This document shows positions 21,378 through 64,000 of a stretch of DNA of 64,000 nt, one piece after another; position 1 is the first letter of the stretch; every line of letters begins with the position of its first letter. This stretch comes from Deltaproteobacteria bacterium. GTDB taxonomy: Bacteria > Desulfobacterota > GWC2-55-46 > DRQE01. Where the stretch lies: assembly GCA_024278765.1 (NCBI GenBank), contig JAJRSM010000048.1, forward strand, positions 2,266 through 66,265. Reading direction: 5' to 3'. The position numbers and the translations under genes are program-made. Below the pieces are notes generated by a model. That model was given only the letters and a program-made list of their open reading frames with translations. It was not told the DNA's origin and ran no database searches.

Positions 21378-24143
21378 TCACATCAGCTCTATCTCAATCA
21401 AATTATCATTTCTGGGAATATAACTTCTCTCAATTGCAAACTCAACCAGCTTCTCCTGAATCTCACGATAATCAGAGTCCAGATTGCCCACTGCCATCAT
21501 CATTTGCAGGGCCTCGGCCTGCTCCCCTGCCTGATTATATGCAAGTGCCAACTCATACATAGCCCCGATCCTATCCTGATCACTCATCCCCTTTACAGCA
21601 AGTGCCTTTATATAAAAACCAACAGCATCAATGTACTTACCTATAGCTACAGCGCATTGGCCGAGTCTGGCATAAGAATTAAACTCAAAGGCAGCCTCTT
21701 TGGCAGAAAGCTTAAACTCTCTGATGGCATCGTCAAAGAGCTCCATCTCCATATAGGCTATTCCCAGATTAAAATGCGTCTCTACGTCTTCGCGGCTGAG
21801 TTGCTCACCCATCCCGGCCTTAAACTCCTCGACCATACCGCTTGACTCTTCGCTATCAGACCAACTATCGACCAATTGACCCAGAGCCTCTTCAATACCA
21901 AGCTCCTTGGTAAGATCGATAAAACCTTCGGACTCATCTTTTACATCGACACTCTTATCTTCCGATATAATCGCGCCGTCTTCATCACCGGATAACGCAA
22001 GTTCTTCTTCAGTAAAAATCTGCTCAACATGACCTGAGTCCTCCACACCTTCTTCTTCCGCCTCGTCGGAGTCCTCTGAGCCGACCGTAATAACCTCGGC
22101 CGCATCATCCTTAAATAACTCTTCCAGATCATACCCCCCCCCTTCAAGCAAGGCATCAATACCAGCCTCCTTCAAGGCCTCTTCAGGCTCTAAGGCCTCT
22201 TCAAGCTCTAAATCTATTGACACGGTCTCTAGATCTTCTGAAGGTGCATCAGAGTCTAGGTCATCTTCTTTCATAAAATCTTCTGAGATCTCAACCAAAT
22301 CTTCTTCCGTAGAGTCTAAGGCAGATTCATCCTCCTCAGAAACCTGATCATCAGGCTCTATAACCTGCTCTGGTGGCTCTACTGCCTCTTCAAGCTCCAA
22401 GGCCTCTTCAAGGTCTACAGCCAACTCCTCGGGCTCTAGCACCTCTTCAATCTCTAAACTATCAGCGTCATCCACAATCTCAAGCTCTTCTAGCTCTTCC
22501 ATCTCTGGCGACTCGTCTATATCTTCTAGTTCAATCTTCTGATCTTCTTCTAGTACTTCAGCTACATCTTCTTCAAACTCTGTAACCTCAGGCAGTTCGA
22601 TATCCCCATTCGAGATCTCAGCCCCTAACTGCTCCGCCTCAACCACCCCGGATGCCTCTTCAGACCCTACAGTCTCTTCCCCTACCTCGTCTTTAGGGCA
22701 GTCTATATCTAACTCAACGGACTCTTCTTGCTCATCAAGATCAAAATCTTCTTTAATCTCTACTTCTACCCGATCCTCTCCAGGCTCTATCGTCTTTTCC
22801 TCTGCCTCATCTTCCTTCTCATCAGGATCTAACTCGACAGACTTGCCCTCCAAGTCACTATCAAAATCAATATCTTCCTCAAGCTCTACTTCTGCCTCTT
22901 GTGACTCCAAGGCCGCTACGACCTCTTCAGACTCTGTAGCACCTTTACCCTCTTGCGTCTCTTCAGGAAGCTCATCCTCAAAATCGACCTCAAAGAACTC
23001 GTCTTCGCCATCGGCGTAATCAGAGTCAATCTCGTCTAGGTCAATATCAAAATAAAAATCTTCTTCAACCTCGGCTTCAGCCTCTTCAGGCTCTAAGGCC
23101 GCTTCAGGCTCTAAGGCCGCTTCAGGCTCTAAGGCCACTTCAGACTCTAAGGCCACTTCAGACTCTAAGGCCACTTCAGACTCTAAGGCCACTTCAGACT
23201 CTAAGGCCACTTCAGACTCTAAGGCTTCTTCTGCGGGTTCTTCATCCAGCGTCAGCTTAGAGACCACACTCTTTTCAAGGATCTCATCGATGGTAGCCTC
23301 TTCCACCTCGGCTTCTTCTTGTAAACCGCCAAGCTCGCTCTCAAACGCATCGCACAGGCCATCTATCATGGCTCTGGCCTTTTCATTGTCAGGAGCAGCC
23401 TCTAAAATAGCATGGCAAAGTGCCTCTAATTTATCCAGCTCACCAGCTTCTTTAAAAGCATCTATAAGCTCGCCGCCATAACTGGTAAATTTAGAGACGT
23501 CTTCTCTTTCTTTATTTATACCAACAAGCCCTTCCAGCACCCTCACGTCCTTTGGGTACTCGGCATAAAGATCATTTAAAATATTCTCGGCCTTCTCAAT
23601 CTTACCCTTAGCAAGGAACTTCTGAAAGATCCAGCAATAGAGATCCAGAGCGTCATCGCCGTAACCAAACTTCTTCTGCATATCAGCGAGCCTGATCTTT
23701 AACCCGGCATTCTCTGAGTCAATTTCGACCATCTTCTGCAAGAGCTCAAAGGCCTCGTTAGAGCGGCCCTTCTTTTCGTATGTATTGAGGATATAGCTGT
23801 ATTCACCGATGGCATCGGCAATAAGACGTTGCTTTGTGTAAAGATCGGCTAGTTTATTATGGATTTCCAGGTTGGTCTCGTCAAGCTTTAGTACCTGCTT
23901 GTAGACCGCGATGGCCTTTAGGTAAAAGCCCTTGCCGGTATTATACTTGGCAATACTGGTGTATTCCTTTATTGCCTCTTCCTTAAGACCTGTCTTAACA
24001 TATAACTCCCCAAGCCTGAGACGCAAAGAGATATCCGAAGGATCTAGTAAGACAATAGACTTATACTCGGCAATGGCCTTATCAAAGTACCCTTTAAGTA
24101 CAAACTTCTGGGCCTTCTCTATCTGTTTTTCCTTCTTTGCCAT
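21378..24143 (-). CDS. TPR-repeat protein with a roughly 450-aa hyper-acidic low-complexity core (ESEVAL and EPEAAL hexapeptide repeats)
   Basis: 921 aa. TPR-like helical repeats at both ends (YFDKAIAEYKSIVLLDP..., FNLGIAYMEMELFDDAIREFK...). The centre is dominated by E/D with perfect hexapeptide repeats. No transmembrane helix or signal peptide is visible. Confidence 0.8.
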   Translation of the reverse strand: MAKKEKQIEKAQKFVLKGYFDKAIAEYKSIVLLDPSDISLRLRLGELYVKTGLKEEAIKEYTSIAKYNTGKGFYLKAIAVYKQVLKLDETNLEIHNKLADLYTKQRLIADAIGEYSYILNTYEKKGRSNEAFELLQKMVEIDSENAGLKIRLADMQKKFGYGDDALDLYCWIFQKFLAKGKIEKAENILNDLYAEYPKDVRVLEGLVGINKEREDVSKFTSYGGELIDAFKEAGELDKLEALCHAILEAAPDNEKARAMIDGLCDAFESELGGLQEEAEVEEATIDEILEKSVVSKLTLDEEPAEEALESEVALESEVALESEVALESEVALESEVALEPEAALEPEAALEPEEAEAEVEEDFYFDIDLDEIDSDYADGEDEFFEVDFEDELPEETQEGKGATESEEVVAALESQEAEVELEEDIDFDSDLEGKSVELDPDEKEDEAEEKTIEPGEDRVEVEIKEDFDLDEQEESVELDIDCPKDEVGEETVGSEEASGVVEAEQLGAEISNGDIELPEVTEFEEDVAEVLEEDQKIELEDIDESPEMEELEELEIVDDADSLEIEEVLEPEELAVDLEEALELEEAVEPPEQVIEPDDQVSEEDESALDSTEEDLVEISEDFMKEDDLDSDAPSEDLETVSIDLELEEALEPEEALKEAGIDALLEGGGYDLEELFKDDAAEVITVGSEDSDEAEEEGVEDSGHVEQIFTEEELALSGDEDGAIISEDKSVDVKDESEGFIDLTKELGIEEALGQLVDSWSDSEESSGMVEEFKAGMGEQLSREDVETHFNLGIAYMEMELFDDAIREFKLSAKEAAFEFNSYARLGQCAVAIGKYIDAVGFYIKALAVKGMSDQDRIGAMYELALAYNQAGEQAEALQMMMAVGNLDSDYREIQEKLVEFAIERSYIPRNDNLIEIELM
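23080..23222. repeat. In-frame 18-bp tandem repeat, about 7.5 copies, inside the TPR/acidic gene
   Basis: ggccgcttcaggctctaa appears twice and ggccacttcagactctaa five times, plus partial copies. These encode (EPEAAL)2(ESEVAL)5 on the minus strand. Confidence 0.95.
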
Positions 24144-48591: not shown

Positions 48592-49476
48592 TCAGTTAGG
48601 GCCTATCATTATCAAAGAAAGATACCATGAAATAATACTCCTGCCGAAAAATATATAAAGCAATGCCCCCATAGATAAAAACGGCCCGAAGGGTACGGCG
48701 TATTTAGCACCCTTTCCCCTGAAGGTCATAATAAATACCCCTATAACAGCACCGGCGACCGAGCCGGTAAAGATCGTAAAGAGCACTCCCTTCCACCCGA
48801 CAAAGGCCCCGATCATTGCCAAAAGCTTTACATCGCCAAAGCCAAGGCCTTCTCTGCCGGTCAACACATAATATCCAAACGATATCAAGAATAAAAACCC
48901 GCCGCCAAGCACAACCCCGATAGCCGCATCTATTACAGAAGGATATAACGCCTCCGCCCCGCCTGCCGGAAGGACAAAACCAAACAGGCAGGCAATACCA
49001 AAGCCAACAACAATCCCGGGCAGACTTATGACGTTCGGTATTATCTTATGATCCAGGTCTATAAAGGCTACGGTCGCCAATGCTACGGTAAAGGCCGCGT
49101 AGGCAAAGAACTCAGGGGCAAAGGCAAAACGCCAGTAAAGGGCAGCTCCAAGCAAGGCAACCAATAATTCGACCATTGCGTAGCGCACGGAAAAGGTCGC
49201 CTTACAGCTTCGACACCGCCCGCCCAAAATAAAATAACTGATTATCGGGATATTATCAAAGCTACGCACAGGTGCGCTACAACTCGGACAACGCGAACCG
49301 GGCGTTACTACAGACAGATGCTCCGGAAGCCTATAGATACAAACATTCAGAAAGCTCCCGATACAGGCACCTATTATAAAGACAACTACTAAGTATATCG
49401 CCTCTGGCAATGGAAACCTCTCGTTTTCAAGATGGTTAAAGACACCTAAAGCAAGTACGCTAGTAGCACTGAGCAA
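48592..49476 (-). CDS. pilD: Prepilin peptidase PilD (A24 family)
   Basis: CPSC...CRSC zinc-binding tetracysteine motif, two catalytic Asp in polytopic membrane helices. 294 aa. Confidence 0.9.
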   Translation of the reverse strand: MLSATSVLALGVFNHLENERFPLPEAIYLVVVFIIGACIGSFLNVCIYRLPEHLSVVTPGSRCPSCSAPVRSFDNIPIISYFILGGRCRSCKATFSVRYAMVELLVALLGAALYWRFAFAPEFFAYAAFTVALATVAFIDLDHKIIPNVISLPGIVVGFGIACLFGFVLPAGGAEALYPSVIDAAIGVVLGGGFLFLISFGYYVLTGREGLGFGDVKLLAMIGAFVGWKGVLFTIFTGSVAGAVIGVFIMTFRGKGAKYAVPFGPFLSMGALLYIFFGRSIISWYLSLIMIGPN

Positions 49477-49642
49477 AGCATATTACCCGGCAACTCGGAA
49501 AGACAACAGCCCTTCACTAACTTTAGAACTATATTATATATTTTCGGGGATTTTCCAGATAGCTTTAGGACTACCCTTGGCAGCTTAACAGCTATCAACA
49601 GGTAGTCCCAACTTATCGAAAAAGACTTTGGGTCGATTCTAT

Positions 49643-49742
49643 ATGGCTACGGACCATCCCAGATGGCTACGGACCACCCCAGGTGGCTTCGGACCATCCC
49701 AGATGGCTGCGGGCTATCTCAGATAGTTTCGGGCATATATTC
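49643..49742. repeat. 20-bp tandem direct repeat array, about 4-5 units
   Basis: atggctacggaccatcccag, atggctacggaccaccccag, gtggcttcggaccatcccag, atggctgcgggctatctcag, then a decaying copy. The core GATGG-N7-CCATC is palindromic. Confidence 0.9.
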
Positions 49743-50141
49743 TTTTCTTGCGGCCTCTACGGCCCTTATAATATCTCCGGCAACTACGATTGCCTCTCTG
49801 GCATCGCGCTCTATTATGACCTCCGATGGTATCCCACCTGGAAGACTATCAGGGAAGCGGGAGGTCTTATAGTGTATATCAAGCCTGCCGGAGGGGCTGA
49901 TAAACTGTTTAAAGGCCTCTTCGTATGTAACGGCACGTTCGAGGAGTTCAACAACAGACTTGGTCTCGTGTGTATCTTCTTTTTTCAGGAAGAGATATGC
50001 ACGAAGTGACTTTGCCGCTCCCTGCTGCGCAAGAAAACATGCAGGTGCAAAAAAACCACCTTCCAGATTCCAATCAGCTGCCTTTAGATCGTACTCGGCC
50101 TGCCTTAACCAGCGTGCCGATTCCTTTGCAAGAACTTCCAT
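49719..50141 (-). CDS. HEPN domain protein with no adjacent nucleotidyltransferase
   Basis: 140-aa all-helical protein (EYDLKAADWNLEGGFFAPACFLAQQGAAKSLRAYLF...). A candidate R-x(3-4)-H HEPN motif is at GRLDIHY. No MNT partner ORF was found within 300 bp on either side. Confidence 0.55.
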   Translation of the reverse strand: MEVLAKESARWLRQAEYDLKAADWNLEGGFFAPACFLAQQGAAKSLRAYLFLKKEDTHETKSVVELLERAVTYEEAFKQFISPSGRLDIHYKTSRFPDSLPGGIPSEVIIERDAREAIVVAGDIIRAVEAARKEYMPETI

Positions 50142-54307: not shown

Positions 54308-54438
54308 AGATCACGATCTTTAGGCAATGCCACTGAAGACAATGCCGCTGGCCGGCCTGAATTTTAGTTGTTTTGTAAAGAGCTAAATAATACATCAATC
54401 TAACACATTACCGTCCTTAATTCCAACTGCAAAAAACC

Positions 54439-55986: not shown

Positions 55987-56691
55987 ATGAATGAAATTGC
56001 CTCGCACGGAAGAATCTGGGATATGGTCGTTGCGGCAGGACCAATGGTCAAGATGGTCTTGATCCTGCTGGTCGTCTTATCTATCGTCTCATGGGCTATT
56101 ATACTCTATAAAGTACTAATGCTGAGAAAGATAGAAAAAGACAGCTCCGCATACTACGACCTCTTCTGGCAGAAGAAAGACCTTGCGCATATGCTAAACG
56201 TAGCAAGCCAGTTTCCCTCTACCCCGATGACAAAACTCGTTAAAGGTGCTCACGACGAAGCAGCCCCGCTAATTAGCAAACTACGCGCTGGCTACGACGG
56301 CTCTGTAGTAGAAGAAGGTCTTGACTATATAGAACGAGTACTAAAAAAGACCATTACTATGGAACGTGCCGCAATGGAGAAGACAACGGCCTTTCTGGCC
56401 ACCACCGGCAGCACCGCACCATTTATCGGGCTCTTCGGTACGGTCTGGGGGATAATGAATACCTTCCGTGCCATTGGCACGCAAGGGGCGGCAAACCTGG
56501 CGGTCGTTGCCCCGGGTATCTCCGAGGCACTAATCGCCACAGCTCTTGGCCTTGTAGCTGCCATACCAGCTGTCGTCGGCTATAACTACATCATCTCTCG
56601 CACAGACAGGATAACAAAAGAGATGGAGGCCTTTAGCTCGGACCTGACCAATATACTGGAAAAATCGCTTAGGCACGCCTCTAAAAAATAA
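55987..56691 (+). CDS. tolQ: Tol-Pal system protein TolQ (MotA/TolQ/ExbB proton channel)
   Basis: Three transmembrane helices and the conserved TTGSTAPFIGLFGTVWGIM segment. Confidence 0.92.
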   Translation: MNEIASHGRIWDMVVAAGPMVKMVLILLVVLSIVSWAIILYKVLMLRKIEKDSSAYYDLFWQKKDLAHMLNVASQFPSTPMTKLVKGAHDEAAPLISKLRAGYDGSVVEEGLDYIERVLKKTITMERAAMEKTTAFLATTGSTAPFIGLFGTVWGIMNTFRAIGTQGAANLAVVAPGISEALIATALGLVAAIPAVVGYNYIISRTDRITKEMEAFSSDLTNILEKSLRHASKK

Positions 56692-56786
56692 TATAAAGGC
56701 TACCTCAACCAGCTCGGACCACTTAAGCGGCCTGAGCCACCGGGACGGATTTAAGCATTACAAGCCTATACCAAGGAAAAAGACCA

Positions 56787-57197
56787 ATGGCCGATAACAG
56801 AATGCTATCTAGTATTAACGTAACGCCTTTTGTGGATGTCATGCTGGTGCTACTCGTGATCTTTATGGTTACGACCCCTTTAATGGAGACAGGCATTGAC
56901 GTAAACCTGCCTGAAGTCGAGGCTGGCTCGGTCGAGGGTCGAGACGAACCCATTATAGTATCGGTCGATAAAAAAGGTGACGTCTTCATCAACAAAAAAA
57001 AGGTAAGCCTCAGTAAACTCAGAGGCAACCTTACCGCTATCGTAAAGAGAAGAAAAGACAAGACCGTCTACCTGAGAGCAGACGAAGCTGTCCCGTACGG
57101 CAAGGTAGCAAGAACAATGGCAACCATTCGCTCATCAGGGATAAAAAAGATAGCAATGATTACAGAAACTCCGACAGGTGGCAGTAACAGAAAATAA
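56787..57197 (+). CDS. tolR: Tol-Pal system protein TolR (ExbD/TolR family)
   Basis: INVTPFVDVMLVLLVIFMVT is the conserved transmembrane segment carrying the Asp. 136 aa. Confidence 0.92.
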   Translation: MADNRMLSSINVTPFVDVMLVLLVIFMVTTPLMETGIDVNLPEVEAGSVEGRDEPIIVSVDKKGDVFINKKKVSLSKLRGNLTAIVKRRKDKTVYLRADEAVPYGKVARTMATIRSSGIKKIAMITETPTGGSNRK

Positions 57198-57213
57198 CAG
57201 ATCAGCCACCCTA

Positions 57214-57385
57214 GATGGTTCAAGCCATCAGTCGATGGTTCAAGCCATCAGTCGATGGTTCAAGCCATCAGTCGATGGTTCAGGCCATCAGTCGATGGTT
57301 CAGGCCATCAGTCGATGGTTCAGGCCATCAGGCGATGGTTCAGGCCATCAGGCGATGGTTCAGGCCATCAGGCGATGGTTCAGGG
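57214..57385. repeat. 20-bp tandem direct repeat array, about 8.5 units, in the tolR-tolA intergenic region
   Basis: gatggttcaagccatcagtc x3, gatggttcaggccatcagtc x3, gatggttcaggccatcaggc x2 plus a partial copy. The core GATGG-N6-CCATC is palindromic. Variants appear in ordered blocks of three. Confidence 0.95.
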
Positions 57386-57441
57386 GCTACCTTAGCAGGT
57401 GACGGCTAAGGCCATTAAGGTCAGGTGGCAGGAGTTCTGGT

Positions 57442-58404
57442 TTGCAAAGCATACTCAACCAACAACAACCCGGGCTAAAGAAGTTTATTACAGCCTCGGT
57501 CATCATACATATAATAATACTCTTTCTCGGGCTCTTCTTTGCCAAGACCAATCCAGCCAGAGTCCTCTCGGCACCAACCTACACAACGGTAGAGCTAGTC
57601 TCGCCGCCTGCCAGGAGGGGTTCGTCAAAAAAAAGAACCGCCAGCAAACGCATCCTGAAAAAACCAGCTCCAATTAAAAACACCGCAAAGGCCACCAAGC
57701 CTGCCACCTCAAAAAAAGTAAGAATTAAAAAAACAACAAAAGTAAGAGCCAAAAAGACCTCGACCAAGGTCATCATACCCGGCACAACAAAGGCCAAGCC
57801 CACCACCACCGCCCAAAAGATCAAAGAGCTTGACAGCGTAAGTGCTGCTATCGCAGCGCTTCAGCAAACAGAGACCGAACGCTCAGAGGATGAACTCATA
57901 GAGCAGCGCATACAGGAGCTTGCCGGTAATACGCAGAGCCAGGCGGATATAGACGACGAGTTGGCAGGGCTCAGGGCCGAGATACTAGAGAACGGGATAA
58001 GCGTAGACGTATTTTCCGGGGATCTGGCTGGAGATCAGGCAGGTGCCGGCAGACCAGACGGCACTGGGGTAAGGTTCGGTGGCGGGTCGAGTTCAGTCAA
58101 TATAAATCAACTCGATATAGCATTTATAGAGTACTATAATACGGTAGGTTCGATGGTACGCTCGGAGTGGATCTTCCCGGGCCAGGCCGTACCTGGGCTC
58201 CAGGCCATCGTTACGATAAAGATAGCGCCTGACGGAAAGCTCTTGGCAATGAGAGTAGAACGCGCCTCAGGCAATACCCTCTTTGATCAATCTGCGATAA
58301 AGGCAGTTGAGAAGGTCGGTGATTTTCCGCCCCTGCCTGAAGATATCGACAAAGATTACCTTGAGATAGGAATACGATTTTGTCCCGGAGGTTGCAAACA
58401 ATAA
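57442..58404 (+). CDS. tolA: Tol-Pal system protein TolA
   Basis: N-terminal transmembrane anchor, a K/A/T-rich extended region, and a C-terminal TonB/TolA domain. Confidence 0.85.
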   Translation: MQSILNQQQPGLKKFITASVIIHIIILFLGLFFAKTNPARVLSAPTYTTVELVSPPARRGSSKKRTASKRILKKPAPIKNTAKATKPATSKKVRIKKTTKVRAKKTSTKVIIPGTTKAKPTTTAQKIKELDSVSAAIAALQQTETERSEDELIEQRIQELAGNTQSQADIDDELAGLRAEILENGISVDVFSGDLAGDQAGAGRPDGTGVRFGGGSSSVNINQLDIAFIEYYNTVGSMVRSEWIFPGQAVPGLQAIVTIKIAPDGKLLAMRVERASGNTLFDQSAIKAVEKVGDFPPLPEDIDKDYLEIGIRFCPGGCKQ

Positions 58405-59819
58405 TGGTGTTGCAAAAAATAAAGACACTGCACGCTATGCTAAGATCAGGTGCGGCAATCAGAAGATACAAAAAAATATGGTTACTGCCCTTACTCCTTG
58501 TCATTGTTACGACTATGGCGACCGCTGCCAACGCCAAGGTCTATATAGATATCGATTCACCAAGCGGCAAGCTCTTACCACTTGCCATCCAGCGGATAGC
58601 AGACCTGAAGCCGCCGGGCAAGAACATCAACCCTATAGGCACAGCGGCCCTTGAAGACGCTGCGGCATATAAACTCAAGTACATCATACTGGATACCCTG
58701 AAGGGCGACATCGAGTTCTCAGGCTTTTTTGAACTGCTCAATCAAGATGCCTTTATCGAGGAGCTGGCTGACTCCGGGCTTACCAGAAAGGAGACAGACT
58801 TCTCACTCTGGCGTATTATCGATACAGAACTTCTAATAAAAGGAGGAATACGACTGGACGGAGAAAAGCTCACCGCCGAGTTCCGGCTCTTTGATACAAC
58901 CCGCGAGACAGAGCTGCTGGCAAAGAGATACGTCGGGAGCAAGGACTCGCCAAGACTCCTGGCCCACCGCTTTGCCGATGACCTGATAAAAAAACTTACC
59001 GGTAAAAAAGGCATATACTCAACCAAGATTGCCTTTATCTCAGGGATCGGCGGCTCAAAAGAGGTCTATCTGGCAGACTACGACGGCCATAACATCAGGC
59101 AGGTCACCAGCAATGGATCGATTAATATTTCGCCTCGCTGGTCGCCGGACAGGAGAAAAATCCTCTACACCTCGTATATGACAGGACATCCCTCGATCTT
59201 CGAGCAAGAGCTGATTACCGGGCGCATCTCTGTCGTCTCCGATAAAAAGGGCTCTAATATCGGAGGACGCTGGTCACCTGACGGCACAAGCATAGCCTAT
59301 ACCGCAACAGGTAAGCACAGCCCTGAACTATACGTAAAAAAGAACGGCTCACGCAGGCCGAAACAACTAACGAACAACTACTCAATCGATGTATCCCCTG
59401 TCTGGTCACCCGATGGCAAGCACCTGGCCTTCGTATCTGATAGGGCTGGAAACCCACATATCTATATGATAAAATCGACAGGGGGTAAAGTCCGCAGGGT
59501 AACCTACAAAGGAAAATACAACACAGACCCAGATTTTTCACCAGACGGGCGGACCATAGCCTTTACCCGTCTTGACAAGACCGGCACCAATGTCTGGACC
59601 ATCCGCAGCGATGGCTCAGGGCTTAAGCAGCTCACCTTTGAGGGCAATAATCAGTCGCCCTCCTGGTCTCCAGATGGTCGTTATCTGGTATTCAGCCGCC
59701 AGTGGGCGGGCAAGGTCCAGCGGCTATATATAATACGTCAAGATGGCTCCGGCATGAAGCGCATTAAGATAAAAATAGGAAAGACCTCGGCACCATCGTG
59801 GTCTCCCTATAGACGATAG
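58404..59819 (+). CDS. tolB: Tol-Pal system beta-propeller protein TolB
   Basis: Repeated SPxWSPDG propeller blades. The likely start is the ATG overlapping the tolA stop as TAATG. The track ORF starts at 58380. Confidence 0.92.
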   Translation: MVLQKIKTLHAMLRSGAAIRRYKKIWLLPLLLVIVTTMATAANAKVYIDIDSPSGKLLPLAIQRIADLKPPGKNINPIGTAALEDAAAYKLKYIILDTLKGDIEFSGFFELLNQDAFIEELADSGLTRKETDFSLWRIIDTELLIKGGIRLDGEKLTAEFRLFDTTRETELLAKRYVGSKDSPRLLAHRFADDLIKKLTGKKGIYSTKIAFISGIGGSKEVYLADYDGHNIRQVTSNGSINISPRWSPDRRKILYTSYMTGHPSIFEQELITGRISVVSDKKGSNIGGRWSPDGTSIAYTATGKHSPELYVKKNGSRRPKQLTNNYSIDVSPVWSPDGKHLAFVSDRAGNPHIYMIKSTGGKVRRVTYKGKYNTDPDFSPDGRTIAFTRLDKTGTNVWTIRSDGSGLKQLTFEGNNQSPSWSPDGRYLVFSRQWAGKVQRLYIIRQDGSGMKRIKIKIGKTSAPSWSPYRR

Positions 59820-59870
59820 ATTACTCACGGAAACTGCAGTGGCCCGTGCCTTCTGGCAAATACCCTCTTA

Positions 59871-60845
59871 TTGAAAAAGGTGACTAACTTGAAAAAGACT
59901 ATTTTATCTTTAGCACTGGTGGCAATATTCGTTCTTGGTTGTTTTGACTACAGCTCGGCCCTAACCATTAAAAGGAAATCTCTTAGAAAGACAGTCGAAG
60001 AGATGGGGTTGCAGGTCAAAGCAGGGGCTGAAAGAAACGAACGGGCCGACGGCGCGATAGCAGATATAGGTGCGGATATAGATGTAATGCGCCAAGACCT
60101 GACGACCATGAACGGACAGCTTGAGGAAAAGGTATTTGATATGGAGCAGCTACGCGAGAATATCGATTTGCTGAGCCAGACCCTACAGAGACTGGAAGAG
60201 AGAATAAAGGCTCTAGAGACTCCTTCGCAGGATGCCATTAATAAAGAGATCAACGAGGCCCTGCAAAAGGAAGAACAAGAAAAAGCTCAGGCCGAGTTGT
60301 TCGCCTCACTAAAGACCGCTATCGAGGCACTTATCATAAGAGTTGATGCCATAGACGGTCTGGACGAAGACAGCGCAACCAAAGAGACCAATACAAAAAA
60401 GGACTCGACAATAACAGATCAATATATGACAGGGCTCGACCTCGTACGGGTAAAGAAAGACTACGCAAAGGCATTAATAGTCTTCAAGAGCTTTCTTAAG
60501 GAAAACCCCAAGCACGAACTGGCAGACAATGCCCGCTACTGGATCGGCGAGATACACTACGTACGCGGTGAATTCGGCAAGGCAGTCCTAGAGTTTAATA
60601 AGGTAATCAAAAATCACCCCGACGGCGATAAGGTCGCCGCCGCGATACTAAAACAGAGCTACTCCTTTGAAAAGCTCGGCTCTACAAAAGAAGCAGGCAT
60701 GCTTCTAAGAAAGGTCATCAAGAAGTATCCTAATAGCACCGAGGCTGAGATAGCCAAAGAACACCTAGAGAATCTCAAAAAAAAGAAGGAAACTATAAAG
60801 CCTGAGAAGGCAGTAGAACCTGCGAAGGCAGCTGGGGATAAGTAG
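59871..60845 (+). CDS. cpoB: Tol-Pal system protein CpoB/YbgF (coiled-coil plus C-terminal TPR)
   Basis: Signal peptide or lipobox, a coiled coil of about 100 aa, and a C-terminal TPR (ARYWIGEIHYVRGEFGKAVLEFNKVIKNHP). Confidence 0.75.
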   Translation: MKKVTNLKKTILSLALVAIFVLGCFDYSSALTIKRKSLRKTVEEMGLQVKAGAERNERADGAIADIGADIDVMRQDLTTMNGQLEEKVFDMEQLRENIDLLSQTLQRLEERIKALETPSQDAINKEINEALQKEEQEKAQAELFASLKTAIEALIIRVDAIDGLDEDSATKETNTKKDSTITDQYMTGLDLVRVKKDYAKALIVFKSFLKENPKHELADNARYWIGEIHYVRGEFGKAVLEFNKVIKNHPDGDKVAAAILKQSYSFEKLGSTKEAGMLLRKVIKKYPNSTEAEIAKEHLENLKKKKETIKPEKAVEPAKAAGDK

Positions 60846-60847
60846 GC

Positions 60848-61996
60848 TTGAGTATCATGACTACCGACGTATCCATAGTAAGGTGCGAGAGCTACGAGAT
60901 AGACCTTGTAAGACGCGCTGTAGAGGAATCTATCGAGTTAATCGGCGGTGTGGAGCGGTTTGTAAAGCGTGGAGAGCGACTTCTACTCAAACCTAATATG
61001 CTTGCCGCAAAAGAAGTCTCAGCTGCCGTCACTACGAATCCGGCTATAGTCCGTGCCGTGGCCGAGATTGTAAAAGACGCAGGTGGTATACCTGTAATAG
61101 GAGACAGCCCCGGAATGGGCTCAGCCCTTAAGGTCGGTAAGAAGTGCGGTATTTTCGAAGTTGCAGAAGAGCTCGCAATTGAATTTACTCCACTCTCAAC
61201 ACCTGTGGATGTCGAGGCCTCTGAAGGTGCTATCTTCAAACGTCTGGAGATCGCCAAAGAGGCTCTAGAAGTAGATGGTATAATAAACCTGCCAAAGTTT
61301 AAGACTCACGCGCAGATGTTCCTGACTATGGGGGTTAAGAATATCTTCGGCTGCGTGCCGGGCAAGCGTAAGCTCCAATGGCACTTTAGCGCAGGCATTG
61401 ACTCAACACATTTCGCAGGGATGATCCTCGACCTATACCTCTACCTGCGCCCTCGCCTTACCATCATGGATGCTATTATATCCCTGGAAGGTAACGGCCC
61501 TATGAGCGGAGACCCCAGGCAAACCAACTTTATCGCGGCCTCACCAGAGGCGATAGCACTGGACCGGGTCATGATAGAGCTAGTGGGTAGAAAGGTAGCT
61601 GAAGTACCTATAATTCAGAACGCAGAGTGGCGCGGCATTAAGGCAGCAAAACTTGAAAACATAAAGATCCGTGGCGCGGGTATAGACGACTTTTGGATCA
61701 AGGACTTTAAAGTACCTCCGACCTTGCATACCAACTTTGCTAATTCGCTACCTAATTTTTTAGAGAAGAGACTCCGGAAATCCATCACCTCGCGCCCACA
61801 GATCAAGCAATCGCAGTGCACAAAGTGTGGCCTATGCATAAAAGTATGCCCGCTTGATATCATCAACAGAATTGAAGGCAGTATATATATAAACCATACG
61901 GATTGCATCAGGTGCTTCTGCTGCCAAGAAATGTGCCCGTGGAAGGCCATCGATATAAAAGAAGGCTGGCTTAAAAAGATATTACCCGGACTATAA
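60848..61996 (+). CDS. DUF362 domain protein fused to a 2x[4Fe-4S] ferredoxin domain
   Basis: The DUF362 N-terminal pattern (LLKPNM...GDSPG) is assigned from memory. C-terminal CTKCGLCIKVCP and CIRCFCCQEMCP motifs. Confidence 0.65.
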   Translation: MSIMTTDVSIVRCESYEIDLVRRAVEESIELIGGVERFVKRGERLLLKPNMLAAKEVSAAVTTNPAIVRAVAEIVKDAGGIPVIGDSPGMGSALKVGKKCGIFEVAEELAIEFTPLSTPVDVEASEGAIFKRLEIAKEALEVDGIINLPKFKTHAQMFLTMGVKNIFGCVPGKRKLQWHFSAGIDSTHFAGMILDLYLYLRPRLTIMDAIISLEGNGPMSGDPRQTNFIAASPEAIALDRVMIELVGRKVAEVPIIQNAEWRGIKAAKLENIKIRGAGIDDFWIKDFKVPPTLHTNFANSLPNFLEKRLRKSITSRPQIKQSQCTKCGLCIKVCPLDIINRIEGSIYINHTDCIRCFCCQEMCPWKAIDIKEGWLKKILPGL

Positions 61997-62105
61997 AAAC
62001 CTCTAAGGTTTTATGGCCTTAGAGCCGAATTAGTCATAGATACCACTCTAGGAAACCGCCGTGACAACTACGCTAAGGCGGAGGCTTGATCTTACTTAAG
62101 AGCTT

Positions 62106-62220
62106 GTCTGTCCATGACAGTTTGATCCGCCCACGGCGGTTTTGATCCGTCCACGACGGTTTTGGTCCGTCCACGGCGATTTTGATCCGTCCACGGCGAT
62201 TTTGATCCGCCACGACAGTT
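62106..62220. repeat. 20-bp tandem direct repeat array, about 5.5 units, directly abutting the asmA ribosome-binding site
   Basis: tttgatccgcccacggcggt, tttgatccgtccacgacggt, tttggtccgtccacggcgat, tttgatccgtccacggcgat, tttgatccgccacgacagt. The array ends 1 nt before GGAG at 62221-62224 and the TTG at 62231. Confidence 0.9.
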
Positions 62221-62230
62221 GGAGACGACC

Positions 62231-64000
62231 TTGCTGCATCCAATAAGACATCTAAAGAAGAAGCCCATCTCTATCTTTATAGTATTCTTACTCATTGCGG
62301 GTACATTTCTCTTATTTTCTTATATAAGTATCGATATAACTGCGCACAAGGCATCGATAAAAGCCCACATTGAAGAAAATATTAACGCAACGATTGAGTT
62401 TGATAAAGCAATGGTTCGCCTACTGCCGTACCCAACGGTCACGGTAACAGAGCTTGCGATCTTTAGCAAAGGAGACGCTATTATAAGGAGCGGATCTTTA
62501 AAGATCTCAGTCTCTCCTATTGCCCTTCTAAAAAAACAAATCAATATAAAACGTCTAATTGTAAAAGACGGTGTAGCCCTGATAAAAAGATATAAAGACG
62601 GCAGCATTAATCTCTCTAAACTCAGGAAAGAGACCACAGGGACGGGGACGGTAGGGTTTCGTCCTGAAGAATTCAGGCTCATCGGTGGGCACTTTCTCTT
62701 TATCGATGAAAAAACAGAGAACGGCGGCCTTGAGATCTCAGAGGTCAGAGCCTACCTGCATAGCACCGGGCGCGGCTATACCTTCAGCCTCGGCGGTATC
62801 CTTGGCAAAGAATCGACCTTCATTCTATCCGGCCTTACCTCGCCGGAGCAGACAGGGCCGCGCGTATCCGGCACTATGGACCTGACAAATATAGAGGTTG
62901 CTACCATAAGACCATACTTGCACAAGGCCGTCGCAGATATCGCGACAGAAGGCTCGCTCGGAGCAAGCCTTGATTTTTCCTTTTCAGGCACCGAGGCTCA
63001 ACTAAACAGCGGTACGATCAAAGGCTCACTCTCATCAAAACGCATAGTACTCGCCCCTCCATATCCAATCAAAGAAAAACTGCATTCTCCAAGTAGCAGT
63101 GCCAATCTGGAGGTCGCCTGGAGTGCCGAGAACTTCCTATTTGCCCTCAATGATATCAGCGTTAAAGTAGCAGACCCCGAGACACACATCAGGCAAATTG
63201 AGCTCGGCGGCAAAGTCAAACTCAGTACCACCAAGGCACATGACTCAGGGATGATAGAGGCCGACCTGTATACCTCAGAGGTCGAGACAAAGTACCTGAA
63301 AAATCTAATCGACCTGAATAGCGCGCCCGTGGGTATTCGTCGTACCTTGGCTAACCTAAAAGAGGTCGAAGGCAAGGTAGCGATAAGACGACTTATAGTC
63401 TTATCGAGCTTAAGCCCACGCGTAAAAACCGGCAGGCGTGATAAAAAAATAGCACTCAAGCTGGAGTTGCTGGATGCAGGAATTACGCACAATGCCCTAG
63501 GCCATAAAGTCACCAGCCTAAGCGGTCATATTACCTATAAAGACGGCGAGCTGAAGCTGCTGGAGATAAAAGGACGCTACGGCGAGGAAGCCATAAAATC
63601 ACTGAATGGATCGATCTCTATTGGCCATGAACCGACTGTCAAACTCTCTCTTAACGCAGATCTAGATGCTGACGCGATCCTCAAAGAACTTAGAGCTTCA
63701 GGAAATATCCTACAGAAAAAATACATAAGAGCAAAAGGGCTTATCGGTATAAAACTGGAACTGGACGGCTCGCTTGCGCAGCTTAAATTCGGCAACTCAA
63801 AAGATAAAAAAACACAAAACACTAGAAAACTTCTTATCAACAGCACTCTGGACCTTACGCACACACACCTTGAGCTTGGTAACGGGCTAGACAAAGAGAT
63901 GGACTTCCCCTTGATCATCGAGGCAAAGACCCATGTCAAGGCAGGTACGATTACCAGCAATGCTCAGATCACAGCAGGCAGTTCGTCGGCAAAGGTCAAA
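62231..64000 (+). CDS. asmA: AsmA-family outer-membrane biogenesis protein; the gene runs off the window edge at 64000
   Basis: Open frame from the TTG at 62231 to the window edge (more than 590 codons). N-terminal transmembrane helix ISIFIVFLLIAGTFLLF, then an AsmA-like N-terminus (IKAHIEENINATIEFDKAMVRLLPYPTVTVTELAIF...LSVSPIALLKKQINIKRLIVKDGVALIKRYKDGSINLSKL). The ORF track lists no ORF that runs off the window edge. Confidence 0.75.
   Translation, partial: MLHPIRHLKKKPISIFIVFLLIAGTFLLFSYISIDITAHKASIKAHIEENINATIEFDKAMVRLLPYPTVTVTELAIFSKGDAIIRSGSLKISVSPIALLKKQINIKRLIVKDGVALIKRYKDGSINLSKLRKETTGTGTVGFRPEEFRLIGGHFLFIDEKTENGGLEISEVRAYLHSTGRGYTFSLGGILGKESTFILSGLTSPEQTGPRVSGTMDLTNIEVATIRPYLHKAVADIATEGSLGASLDFSFSGTEAQLNSGTIKGSLSSKRIVLAPPYPIKEKLHSPSSSANLEVAWSAENFLFALNDISVKVADPETHIRQIELGGKVKLSTTKAHDSGMIEADLYTSEVETKYLKNLIDLNSAPVGIRRTLANLKEVEGKVAIRRLIVLSSLSPRVKTGRRDKKIALKLELLDAGITHNALGHKVTSLSGHITYKDGELKLLEIKGRYGEEAIKSLNGSISIGHEPTVKLSLNADLDADAILKELRASGNILQKKYIRAKGLIGIKLELDGSLAQLKFGNSKDKKTQNTRKLLINSTLDLTHTHLELGNGLDKEMDFPLIIEAKTHVKAGTITSNAQITAGSSSAKVK

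Follow-up and report, generated by a model that had tools for sequence, protein, structure and literature searches.

Several described systems come close to short tandem hairpins in bacterial spacers. In the bacterial VNTRs or minisatellites, especially the MIRU of Mycobacterium, units lie head to tail in or between co-directional genes, copy number varies among close relatives and stop codons are overlapped; the MIRU units are 46–101 bp long (PMC3184786). Small ORFs of MIRU overlap the flanking stop and start codons. The REP/BIME and SMAG elements are short G+C-rich extragenic palindromes of transcribed spacers, which occur as monomers or small clusters with compensatory stems and are documented to affect how stable the upstream mRNA is (PMC3184786). 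REPs come in hundreds of dispersed, near-identical copies, usually as inverted pairs, and are RAYT-associated. Iterons of plasmids and chromosomes and tandem operator arrays are direct repeats of about 20 bp, that is, about two helical turns. Finally, template switching at quasipalindromes is documented to create and maintain hairpins, with perfect arms and paired "compensatory" changes, without selection (PMC7202029, PMC8794818). It has been described for single hairpins, not as a driver of tandem arrays.

We analysed 64,000 nt of the genome of a Deltaproteobacteria bacterium (GCA_024278765.1; GTDB lineage Bacteria; Desulfobacterota; GWC2-55-46; DRQE01), namely positions 2,266–66,265 of the forward strand of contig JAJRSM010000048.1, hereafter the window. 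Between a HEPN-domain gene and pilD the window carries a 20-bp array, A1, that fits fully neither the MIRU-type VNTRs nor the REP/BIME/SMAG palindromes, its closest known kin. Its copies are head to tail and its period of 20 falls within the 10–100 bp of VNTR units. Unlike the MIRU, the arrays described here have units of 19–21 bp with a mini-hairpin maintained in each, and no ORF runs from A1 to pilD. Unlike REPs, the units are tandem and direct, are seeded locally and are found nowhere else in the 64 kb. They differ from iterons in having no rep gene or origin context, in that the unit sequence is not conserved and the half-sites covary, and in being dispensable in syntenic relatives. A search of the literature on Deltaproteobacteria or Thermodesulfobacteriota for tandem repeats of hairpins in intergenic DNA gave no specific report. 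We consider A1 to be, with reasonable probability, a clade-specific minisatellite of variable copy number, which is built of 20-bp units, each a mini stem-loop with 5 bp in the stem and 3 nt in the loop, joined to a 7-nt linker, and which was seeded at a hairpin over the HEPN stop codon and grew by slippage.

The array between the HEPN gene and pilD

The initial annotation had claimed a tandem array at 49643–49742, and the array is real. TRF finds 4.1–4.4 head-to-tail copies of 20 bp at 49643–49724/49734 (82–85% matches, score 115). Since none of 20 dinucleotide-preserving shuffles of the window scored above 64, A1 is not a product of chance. A CRISPR array is ruled out, as the units abut without spacers. 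In-register alignment of the copies and hairpin parsing place A1 (also called alpha) at 49634–49733 on the minus strand. Read on the sense strand of HEPN and pilD, the unit consists of a 5-nt stem arm, a 3-nt loop, the other 5-nt arm and a 7-nt linker. The array opens with the linker CCCGAAA, which is still HEPN coding sequence, and continues with five hairpin-and-linker modules: CTATC-TGA-GATAG (49714–49726) with linker cccgcag, CCATC-TGG-GATGG (49694–49706) with tccgaag, CCACC-TGG-GGTGG (49674–49686) with tccgtag, CCATC-TGG-GATGG again (49654–49666), also with tccgtag, and a degenerate terminal module, CCATA-TAG-AATCG (49634–49646). Four of the hairpins are thus perfect 5-3-5 structures, which use three different stems among them, and the fifth is decayed.

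The phase in which the dyad is read matters. Across the loop the four hairpins pair at 5, 5, 5 and 5 of 5 positions, versus 4, 4, 4 and 4 of 5 for the linker-spanning dyad on which the initial annotation had built an ATGG...CCAT core. That core, as ATGG-N7-CCAT, is intact in one copy only. The "progressive decay" of the copies is mostly a set of paired compensatory changes in the other phase, CCAYC-TGG-GRTGG, which break ATGG-N7-CCAT; the third module, for example, carries a compensated double change relative to its neighbours. Over the whole family of arrays described below, the loop- and linker-spanning dyads are nearly equal (84% vs. 81%), because the arrays are mostly homogeneous and only heterogeneous ones like A1 discriminate between the two.

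The overlap of A1 with the end of the HEPN gene (140 aa, 49719–50141, minus strand; Pfam PF05168, E 1.4e-21) was noted correctly: the stop codon, 49719–49721, lies inside the array. The last codons and the stop, ACT ATC TGA, supply the 5′ arm and the loop of the first module, the loop being the stop codon itself, and CTATC pairs with the downstream GATAG. The founding unit of A1 is therefore local sequence, the 3′ end of the HEPN gene. The HEPN C-terminus, ...YMPETI*, is kept in homologues that have no array. To call the gene a solo HEPN, as had been done, is misleading, since its place beside argJ and pilD is conserved in synteny across Thermodesulfobacteriota. Pfam confirms the neighbours of the arrays as HEPN, PilD, ArgJ, SecA, TolQ, TolR, TolA, TolB, a DUF362 Fe-S protein and an AsmA/DUF748 protein; an exact-sequence look-up of the window's HEPN and TolR proteins found neither on record.

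On the other side of the spacer lies the prepilin peptidase gene pilD (48592–49410, minus strand; Pfam). The array had been placed about 170 bp upstream of it, which holds for the longest ORF (start 49476) only. As PilD homologues have 272 aa, the true start is the TTG at 49410, behind GAGAGG and 233 bp from A1. The intervening DNA holds two relic modules of a second type, beta, CTACC-TGTT-GATAG and CTGCC-AAG-GGTAG, with TCCTAAAG (49571–49605, minus strand). In relatives the beta modules form arrays of 4–6 copies of 20–21 bp at this place, between A1 and a conserved core. The unit is CTACC-AGA-GGTAG TCCTAAAG (21 bp) in L028 and L040, and CTGCC-GGA/AGG-GGCAG TCC(C)AAAG (20–21 bp) in L041 and L042.

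The core follows immediately on the last beta module; its sequence is CTATC TGGAAA-18 nt-TATAGT (49528–49562, minus strand), and it is kept in all in-clade loci. It is a sigma-70-like match (9/12) and, judged by its sequence, probably the pilD promoter. The string with which the core opens, ...AAAG CTATC TGA, is also that of the HEPN end, so that the whole spacer has the look of a single array fixed to functional sequence at either end. The core is part of a block of about 45 nt, GGTAGTCCTAAAGCTATCTGRAAAATCCCCGAAAATATATAATATAG, which is also present in L027, L028, L029, L031, L040, L041 and L042 and is conserved down to relatives with PilD 75% identical; the repeat module adjoining this block is the only invariant one.

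It should be noted that mechanically called ORFs run through the arrays on the plus strand, at 49663–49872 and 49683–50009 (antisense to HEPN) and at 57178–57402 and 57215–57409 (tolR–tolA). Relatives do not keep them, and automatic gene callers will probably be misled by them; in L028 and L040 a gene of 71 aa has been called across the beta array.

Turnover of the spacer among relatives

The number of units and their sequence change between close relatives. L040, whose HEPN is 98% identical, has six A1 units; their interior differs from that of the window while both ends are the same, down to the terminal CCATA-TAG-AATCA. Its array opens with a near-exact duplicate of the HEPN end, ...CCCGAAACTATCTGA followed by GATAGCCCGAAACTATCTAA..., which can also be written as CCCGAAACTATCTGA followed by GATAG CCCGAAACTATCTAA. 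L041 and L042 (HEPN 94%) have about 3–4 units with a period of 21. Copy number is thus variable, as in a VNTR: five units in the window, six in L040 and about 3–4 of 21 bp in L041 and L042. The stems, too, differ among these homologous arrays. The third base of the Thr codon at the HEPN end changes together with the 3′ arm, ACC ATC TGA GATGG in L041 and L042 vs. ACT ATC TGA GATAG in the window and L040, which means that a synonymous coding site covaries with a non-coding arm.

Farther away the array is missing. L029 and L031 keep the order ArgJ-HEPN-PilD and the ...YMPETI* terminus and have no array; L044 and L047 (HEPN 75–76%) have the same gene order and likewise no arrays in their spacers of 150 and 47 nt. 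A comparison of orthologous spacers, which the initial annotation had proposed as a check, thus finds homologous arrays in close relatives and none in more distant ones of the same gene order. At L031 6990–7040 the HEPN stop codon lies within the 5′ arm of a long terminator-like composite hairpin, ACCATCTA-G-GGCGGC-TTG-GCCGTC-T-TAGATGGT. The mini-hairpin amplified in the lineage of the window may plausibly derive from such a long hairpin. In L028 and L043 the contig stops at the edge of the A1 position, and in L027 it begins inside the neighbouring array, as repeats break short-read assemblies.

Slippage is the most economical account of how A1 grew. The array would grow and shrink by slipped-strand mispairing during replication, and the hairpins, by bringing neighbouring linkers together, could aid the mispairing. 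Selection may keep the stems paired, acting on a stem-loop of the HEPN 3′ UTR upstream of the pilD promoter, or template switching within the hairpin may do so. Any effect of the array would be expected on the structure of a transcript 3′ end or leader, as with REP and SMAG, or on spacing, and not through operator occupancy.

Arrays of the same grammar at other loci

Two more arrays of the window invite comparison with A1. The first, A2, lies between tolR and tolA (57214–57393, plus strand) and has 8.6 modules of CCATC-AGTC/AGGC-GATGG with TTCAAG/TTCAGG; TRF reports 8.6 copies of 20 bp with 98% matches at 57214–57384. Its copies stand in blocks of identical neighbours, in the order AAA-BB-CCC, which indicates local expansion. 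In L001 the place of A2 is taken by two modules of 19 bp between nearly identical flanks. ORFs that would couple the flanking genes through A2 in the manner of MIRU are ruled out, as they are not conserved in L001. The second array, A3, lies between a DUF362 gene and an AsmA/DUF748 gene (62108–62220, plus strand; TRF, 4.8 copies of 20 bp at 62121–62214) and is built of CCGCC-CAC-GGCGG, CCGTC-CAC-GACGG and further modules with the linker TTTTGAT. A unique flanking hairpin, CTGTC-CAT-GACAG (62108–62120), is probably its seed. L001 has 3–4 degenerate modules of A3.

The A1 unit does resemble that of tolR–tolA, as had been claimed. The cyclic, both-strand, gapped alignment of the two units scores 13, which 23–26 of 2000 shuffles reach (p ~0.012 before correction for three pairs). 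The similarity of A1 to A3 and of A2 to A3 is not significant against shuffles, so that alignment of all three arrays leaves one pair modestly above chance. The resemblance does not extend to a common operator. The proposed consensus, GATGGTYC-N3-RGCCAT, has no match on either strand of the whole window. A2 fits it with N1 (8 copies) and A1 with N2 (1 copy), and the spacing of the supposed common dyad is 6 at one locus vs. 7 at the other. A motif scan of the 64 kb found no GATGG-N5-8-CCATC outside the arrays, and neither this motif nor ATGG-N5-8-CCAT is enriched there.

What the arrays share is a grammar: two stem arms of 5 nt enclose a loop of 3 nt (4 nt in A2), and a linker of 6–8 nt follows. 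Arrays with CYRYC-N3-GRYRG stems are present in the tolQ–tolR and tolR–tolA spacers, in the leaders of secA and tolQ and ahead of the asmA-like gene, those of the tolQ–tolR spacer and of the two leaders being found in relatives. Related modules occupy in all 5–6 spacers within about 15 kb, plus those of relatives. The CYRYC rule was defined solely on the arrays of the HEPN–pilD spacer and then tried on other loci, where it holds at 6/7 vs. 1.9% of 1493 control hairpins (p ~3e-10; with no more than four sites taken as independent, 1e-7). The family has ten distinct perfectly paired stems, all of which fit YYRYC and differ by transitions only. Over 48 units, 89.6% of the cells are paired vs. 77.1 ± 1.2 in shuffles (0/500 reach the observed value), and double-sided changes number 49 vs. 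20.7 ± 3.0, counts for which registers were set by eye and in which copies within one array are related rather than independent. Slid registers pair at 17–61%. Hairpins of the family occur at 3.5 per 10 kb in the clade vs. 0.3 and 0.8 in two control sets (4–10x); the other intergenic regions of the 64-kb window have none.

The kinship among the arrays is thus real, and it lies in structure and grammar, not in operator sequence. The initial annotation had argued for a shared cause rather than independent slippage events, and this was half right. The arrays are related and follow one grammar, yet each was seeded locally and then expanded locally, and neither a shared sequence-specific DNA-binding protein nor a role as iterons finds support. 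Plain slippage, for its part, does not account for the CYRYC rule and the similar linkers (TYC-N-AAG) in unrelated spacers.

Some observations on neighbouring repeats may be added. In the secA leader of relatives (L041 5841–5920, L031 2425–2480, L029 4760–4880) there are 3–4 hairpin modules, such as CCGCC-TGA-GACGG ATCACCA and TCGCC-AGT-GGCGA ATCACAGC, downstream of a conserved promoter-like TTGCAG-16-TAATGT; the window has only relics there (54308–54400, minus strand). Just after the M23 peptidase gene, L041 (5649–5694) and L029 (4557–4616) have 3–4 copies of a 15-bp repeat, GCCTCTGTTGTCTCG, without a hairpin, so not every array of the clade obeys the grammar. Repeats of another kind than the 20-bp spacer arrays are the 18-bp in-frame coding repeats at 22174–22422 and 23080–23225 (up to 8.1 copies, 97% identity), within a 921-aa ORF (21378–24143, minus strand). 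Repeats of 18 bp, CCGGCAGAGGGTCTGCTT, are present in 2.6–5.4 copies, a number that varies, at L041 14419–14479, L042 7517–7614 and L029 13636–13683. They lie inside the gene that follows the histidine-kinase gene and that in L029 is called as a sigma-54 response regulator. Outside the clade, the JGI contigs L034 (515–555), L035 (3583–3650) and L037 (752–792), from unrelated high-GC organisms, have 20-bp arrays of CCATC-ACGA/ACTT-GATGG with a 6-nt linker in 2–3.4 copies; two of these units are 15/20 identical to each other.

What makes and keeps the arrays

Among the alternatives to a slippage-grown minisatellite, an RNA-level role is the least improbable, though we regard it as unlikely. The tandem stem-loops would be a cis-acting motif in the 3′ UTRs, leaders and spacers of envelope and secretion genes (secA, tolQRA, pilD, the asmA-like gene), either bound by one RNA-binding protein or buffering mRNA decay, with copy number tuning the effect. 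All the arrays do lie in spacers that are co-directional and probably transcribed, and stem changes that are compensatory and restricted to transitions are what a structured RNA would show. On the sense strand 44/46 units have a purine at the centre of the triloop, the modules that are conserved are the one nearest the promoter and the one at the stop codon, and REP and SMAG are known to affect the stability of upstream transcripts (PMC3184786). The mismatches tell otherwise: A.C combinations number 16 on the sense strand vs. 6 G.T (G.U) wobbles, the opposite of what constraint on a sense RNA would lead one to expect. Moreover, the A3 linker fits the family in reverse orientation only, and some relatives with the same operons are entirely without modules. 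Rfam covariance models gave no match at the gathering score in the whole window and none at E ≤ 1 in 49350–49800, which speaks against a known RNA family. A CsrA/Rsm sponge, with GGA in the hairpin loops, was rejected as well, as by inspection GGA is found in some units only and in none of A2.

Folding energy adds little to the case for RNA. The A1 RNA folds no better than shuffles (z = -1.2), and the same is true of A3 (z = 0.0). A2 folds into one long imperfect hairpin (57200–57420, -103 kcal/mol, z = -8.7), which is significant because the whole array is self-complementary; we dropped folding energy as evidence for the arrays, since it is significant for A2 only. The long hairpin of A2 between tolR and tolA could matter for tolA expression.

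A rather unlikely reading, which would cover the cross-locus grammar, is that the modules (CYRYC-N3-GRYRG with a linker of about 7 nt) are an undescribed, clade-specific class of tandemly propagating stem-loops, which colonises the transcribed spacers of operons for envelope and secretion functions. They would be made or kept by a factor specific for structure, whether a DNA enzyme that recognises hairpins or an RNA-binding protein, and the HEPN stop-codon hairpin would be one progenitor.

Quite improbable is a mobile family of the REP type, in which a hairpin-specific enzyme, for instance a RAYT or an IS200-type Y1 transposase, would recognise the CYRYC-N3-GRYRG hairpins and spread copies of them both in place and from locus to locus. 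A common stem rule and similar linkers at several loci of one clade, and the 13-mer CCGCCTGAGACGG at three different loci in three genomes, are consistent with such copying. The arrays trace to local sequence instead, A1 to HEPN codons and A3 probably to its flanking hairpin, and the units are direct head-to-tail repeats, not inverted pairs. The window's other intergenic regions hold no member, and no transposase was found among 19 ORFs scanned with Pfam, mostly from 38.6–64 kb of the window. GTAG/CTAC, the hallmark tetranucleotide of REPs (PMC3184786), does occur in the beta stems, but there GTAG is part of the stem, and it is absent from the alpha, A2 and A3 units.

Highly improbable, finally, is the explanation of the initial annotation, by which a shared sequence-specific DNA-binding protein would occupy ATGG...CCAT half-sites as iterons or operators at both loci: the palindromic units spaced 20–21 bp (about two helical turns), the position of the alpha and beta arrays, which adjoin the -35 of the conserved promoter-like core on its upstream side, and the two-component pair adjoining pilD (a histidine kinase and a sigma-54 activator with an HTH_8 domain) would suit it, but the consensus and its spacing fail as described, no sites exist outside the arrays in 64 kb, the half-sites covary rather than stay conserved (three stem variants in A1, ten in the family), the other arrays lie inside operons or leaders and not at promoters (A2 is intercistronic), copy number, period and unit sequence differ between relatives with HEPN 94–98% identical, syntenic relatives do without arrays, no rep gene, DnaA-box cluster or origin signature is nearby, and the A2 architecture, when looked for in all JGI metagenomes, turned up at 8 unrelated loci only, about chance among 20-bp arrays. 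A transcription-factor or iteron role of A1 is thus not supported.

The window does have a switch of gene strand (all 50 ORFs of 1–55499 are on the minus strand, all of 55987–64000 on the plus strand in an ORF-based map), with a GC skew of about -0.2 to its left and about 0 to its right and a cumulative minimum near 56–58 kb. Iterons of an oriC were considered on account of the strand switch at 55.5–56 kb and the skew minimum, and rejected: there is no DnaA-box cluster, so that no origin can be called, and the divergent arrangement of tolQ and M23-secA is kept in distant relatives.

In closing, the minisatellite reading of A1 carries a general lesson, that an apparent signal of iterons or a shared operator can be a hairpin-based minisatellite and that apparent decay of an array can be compensatory change. 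The arrays are ready-made markers for strain typing, and they explain why short-read contigs break at these spacers. The recurrence of one stem and linker grammar across spacers is the only part with real potential for novelty. If a dedicated factor were behind this cross-locus grammar, the arrays would correspond, in tandem form, to the REP elements, here in an uncultured lineage of hydrothermal vents, and would offer a natural system for following the birth of hairpins from coding 3′ ends and their subsequent amplification.
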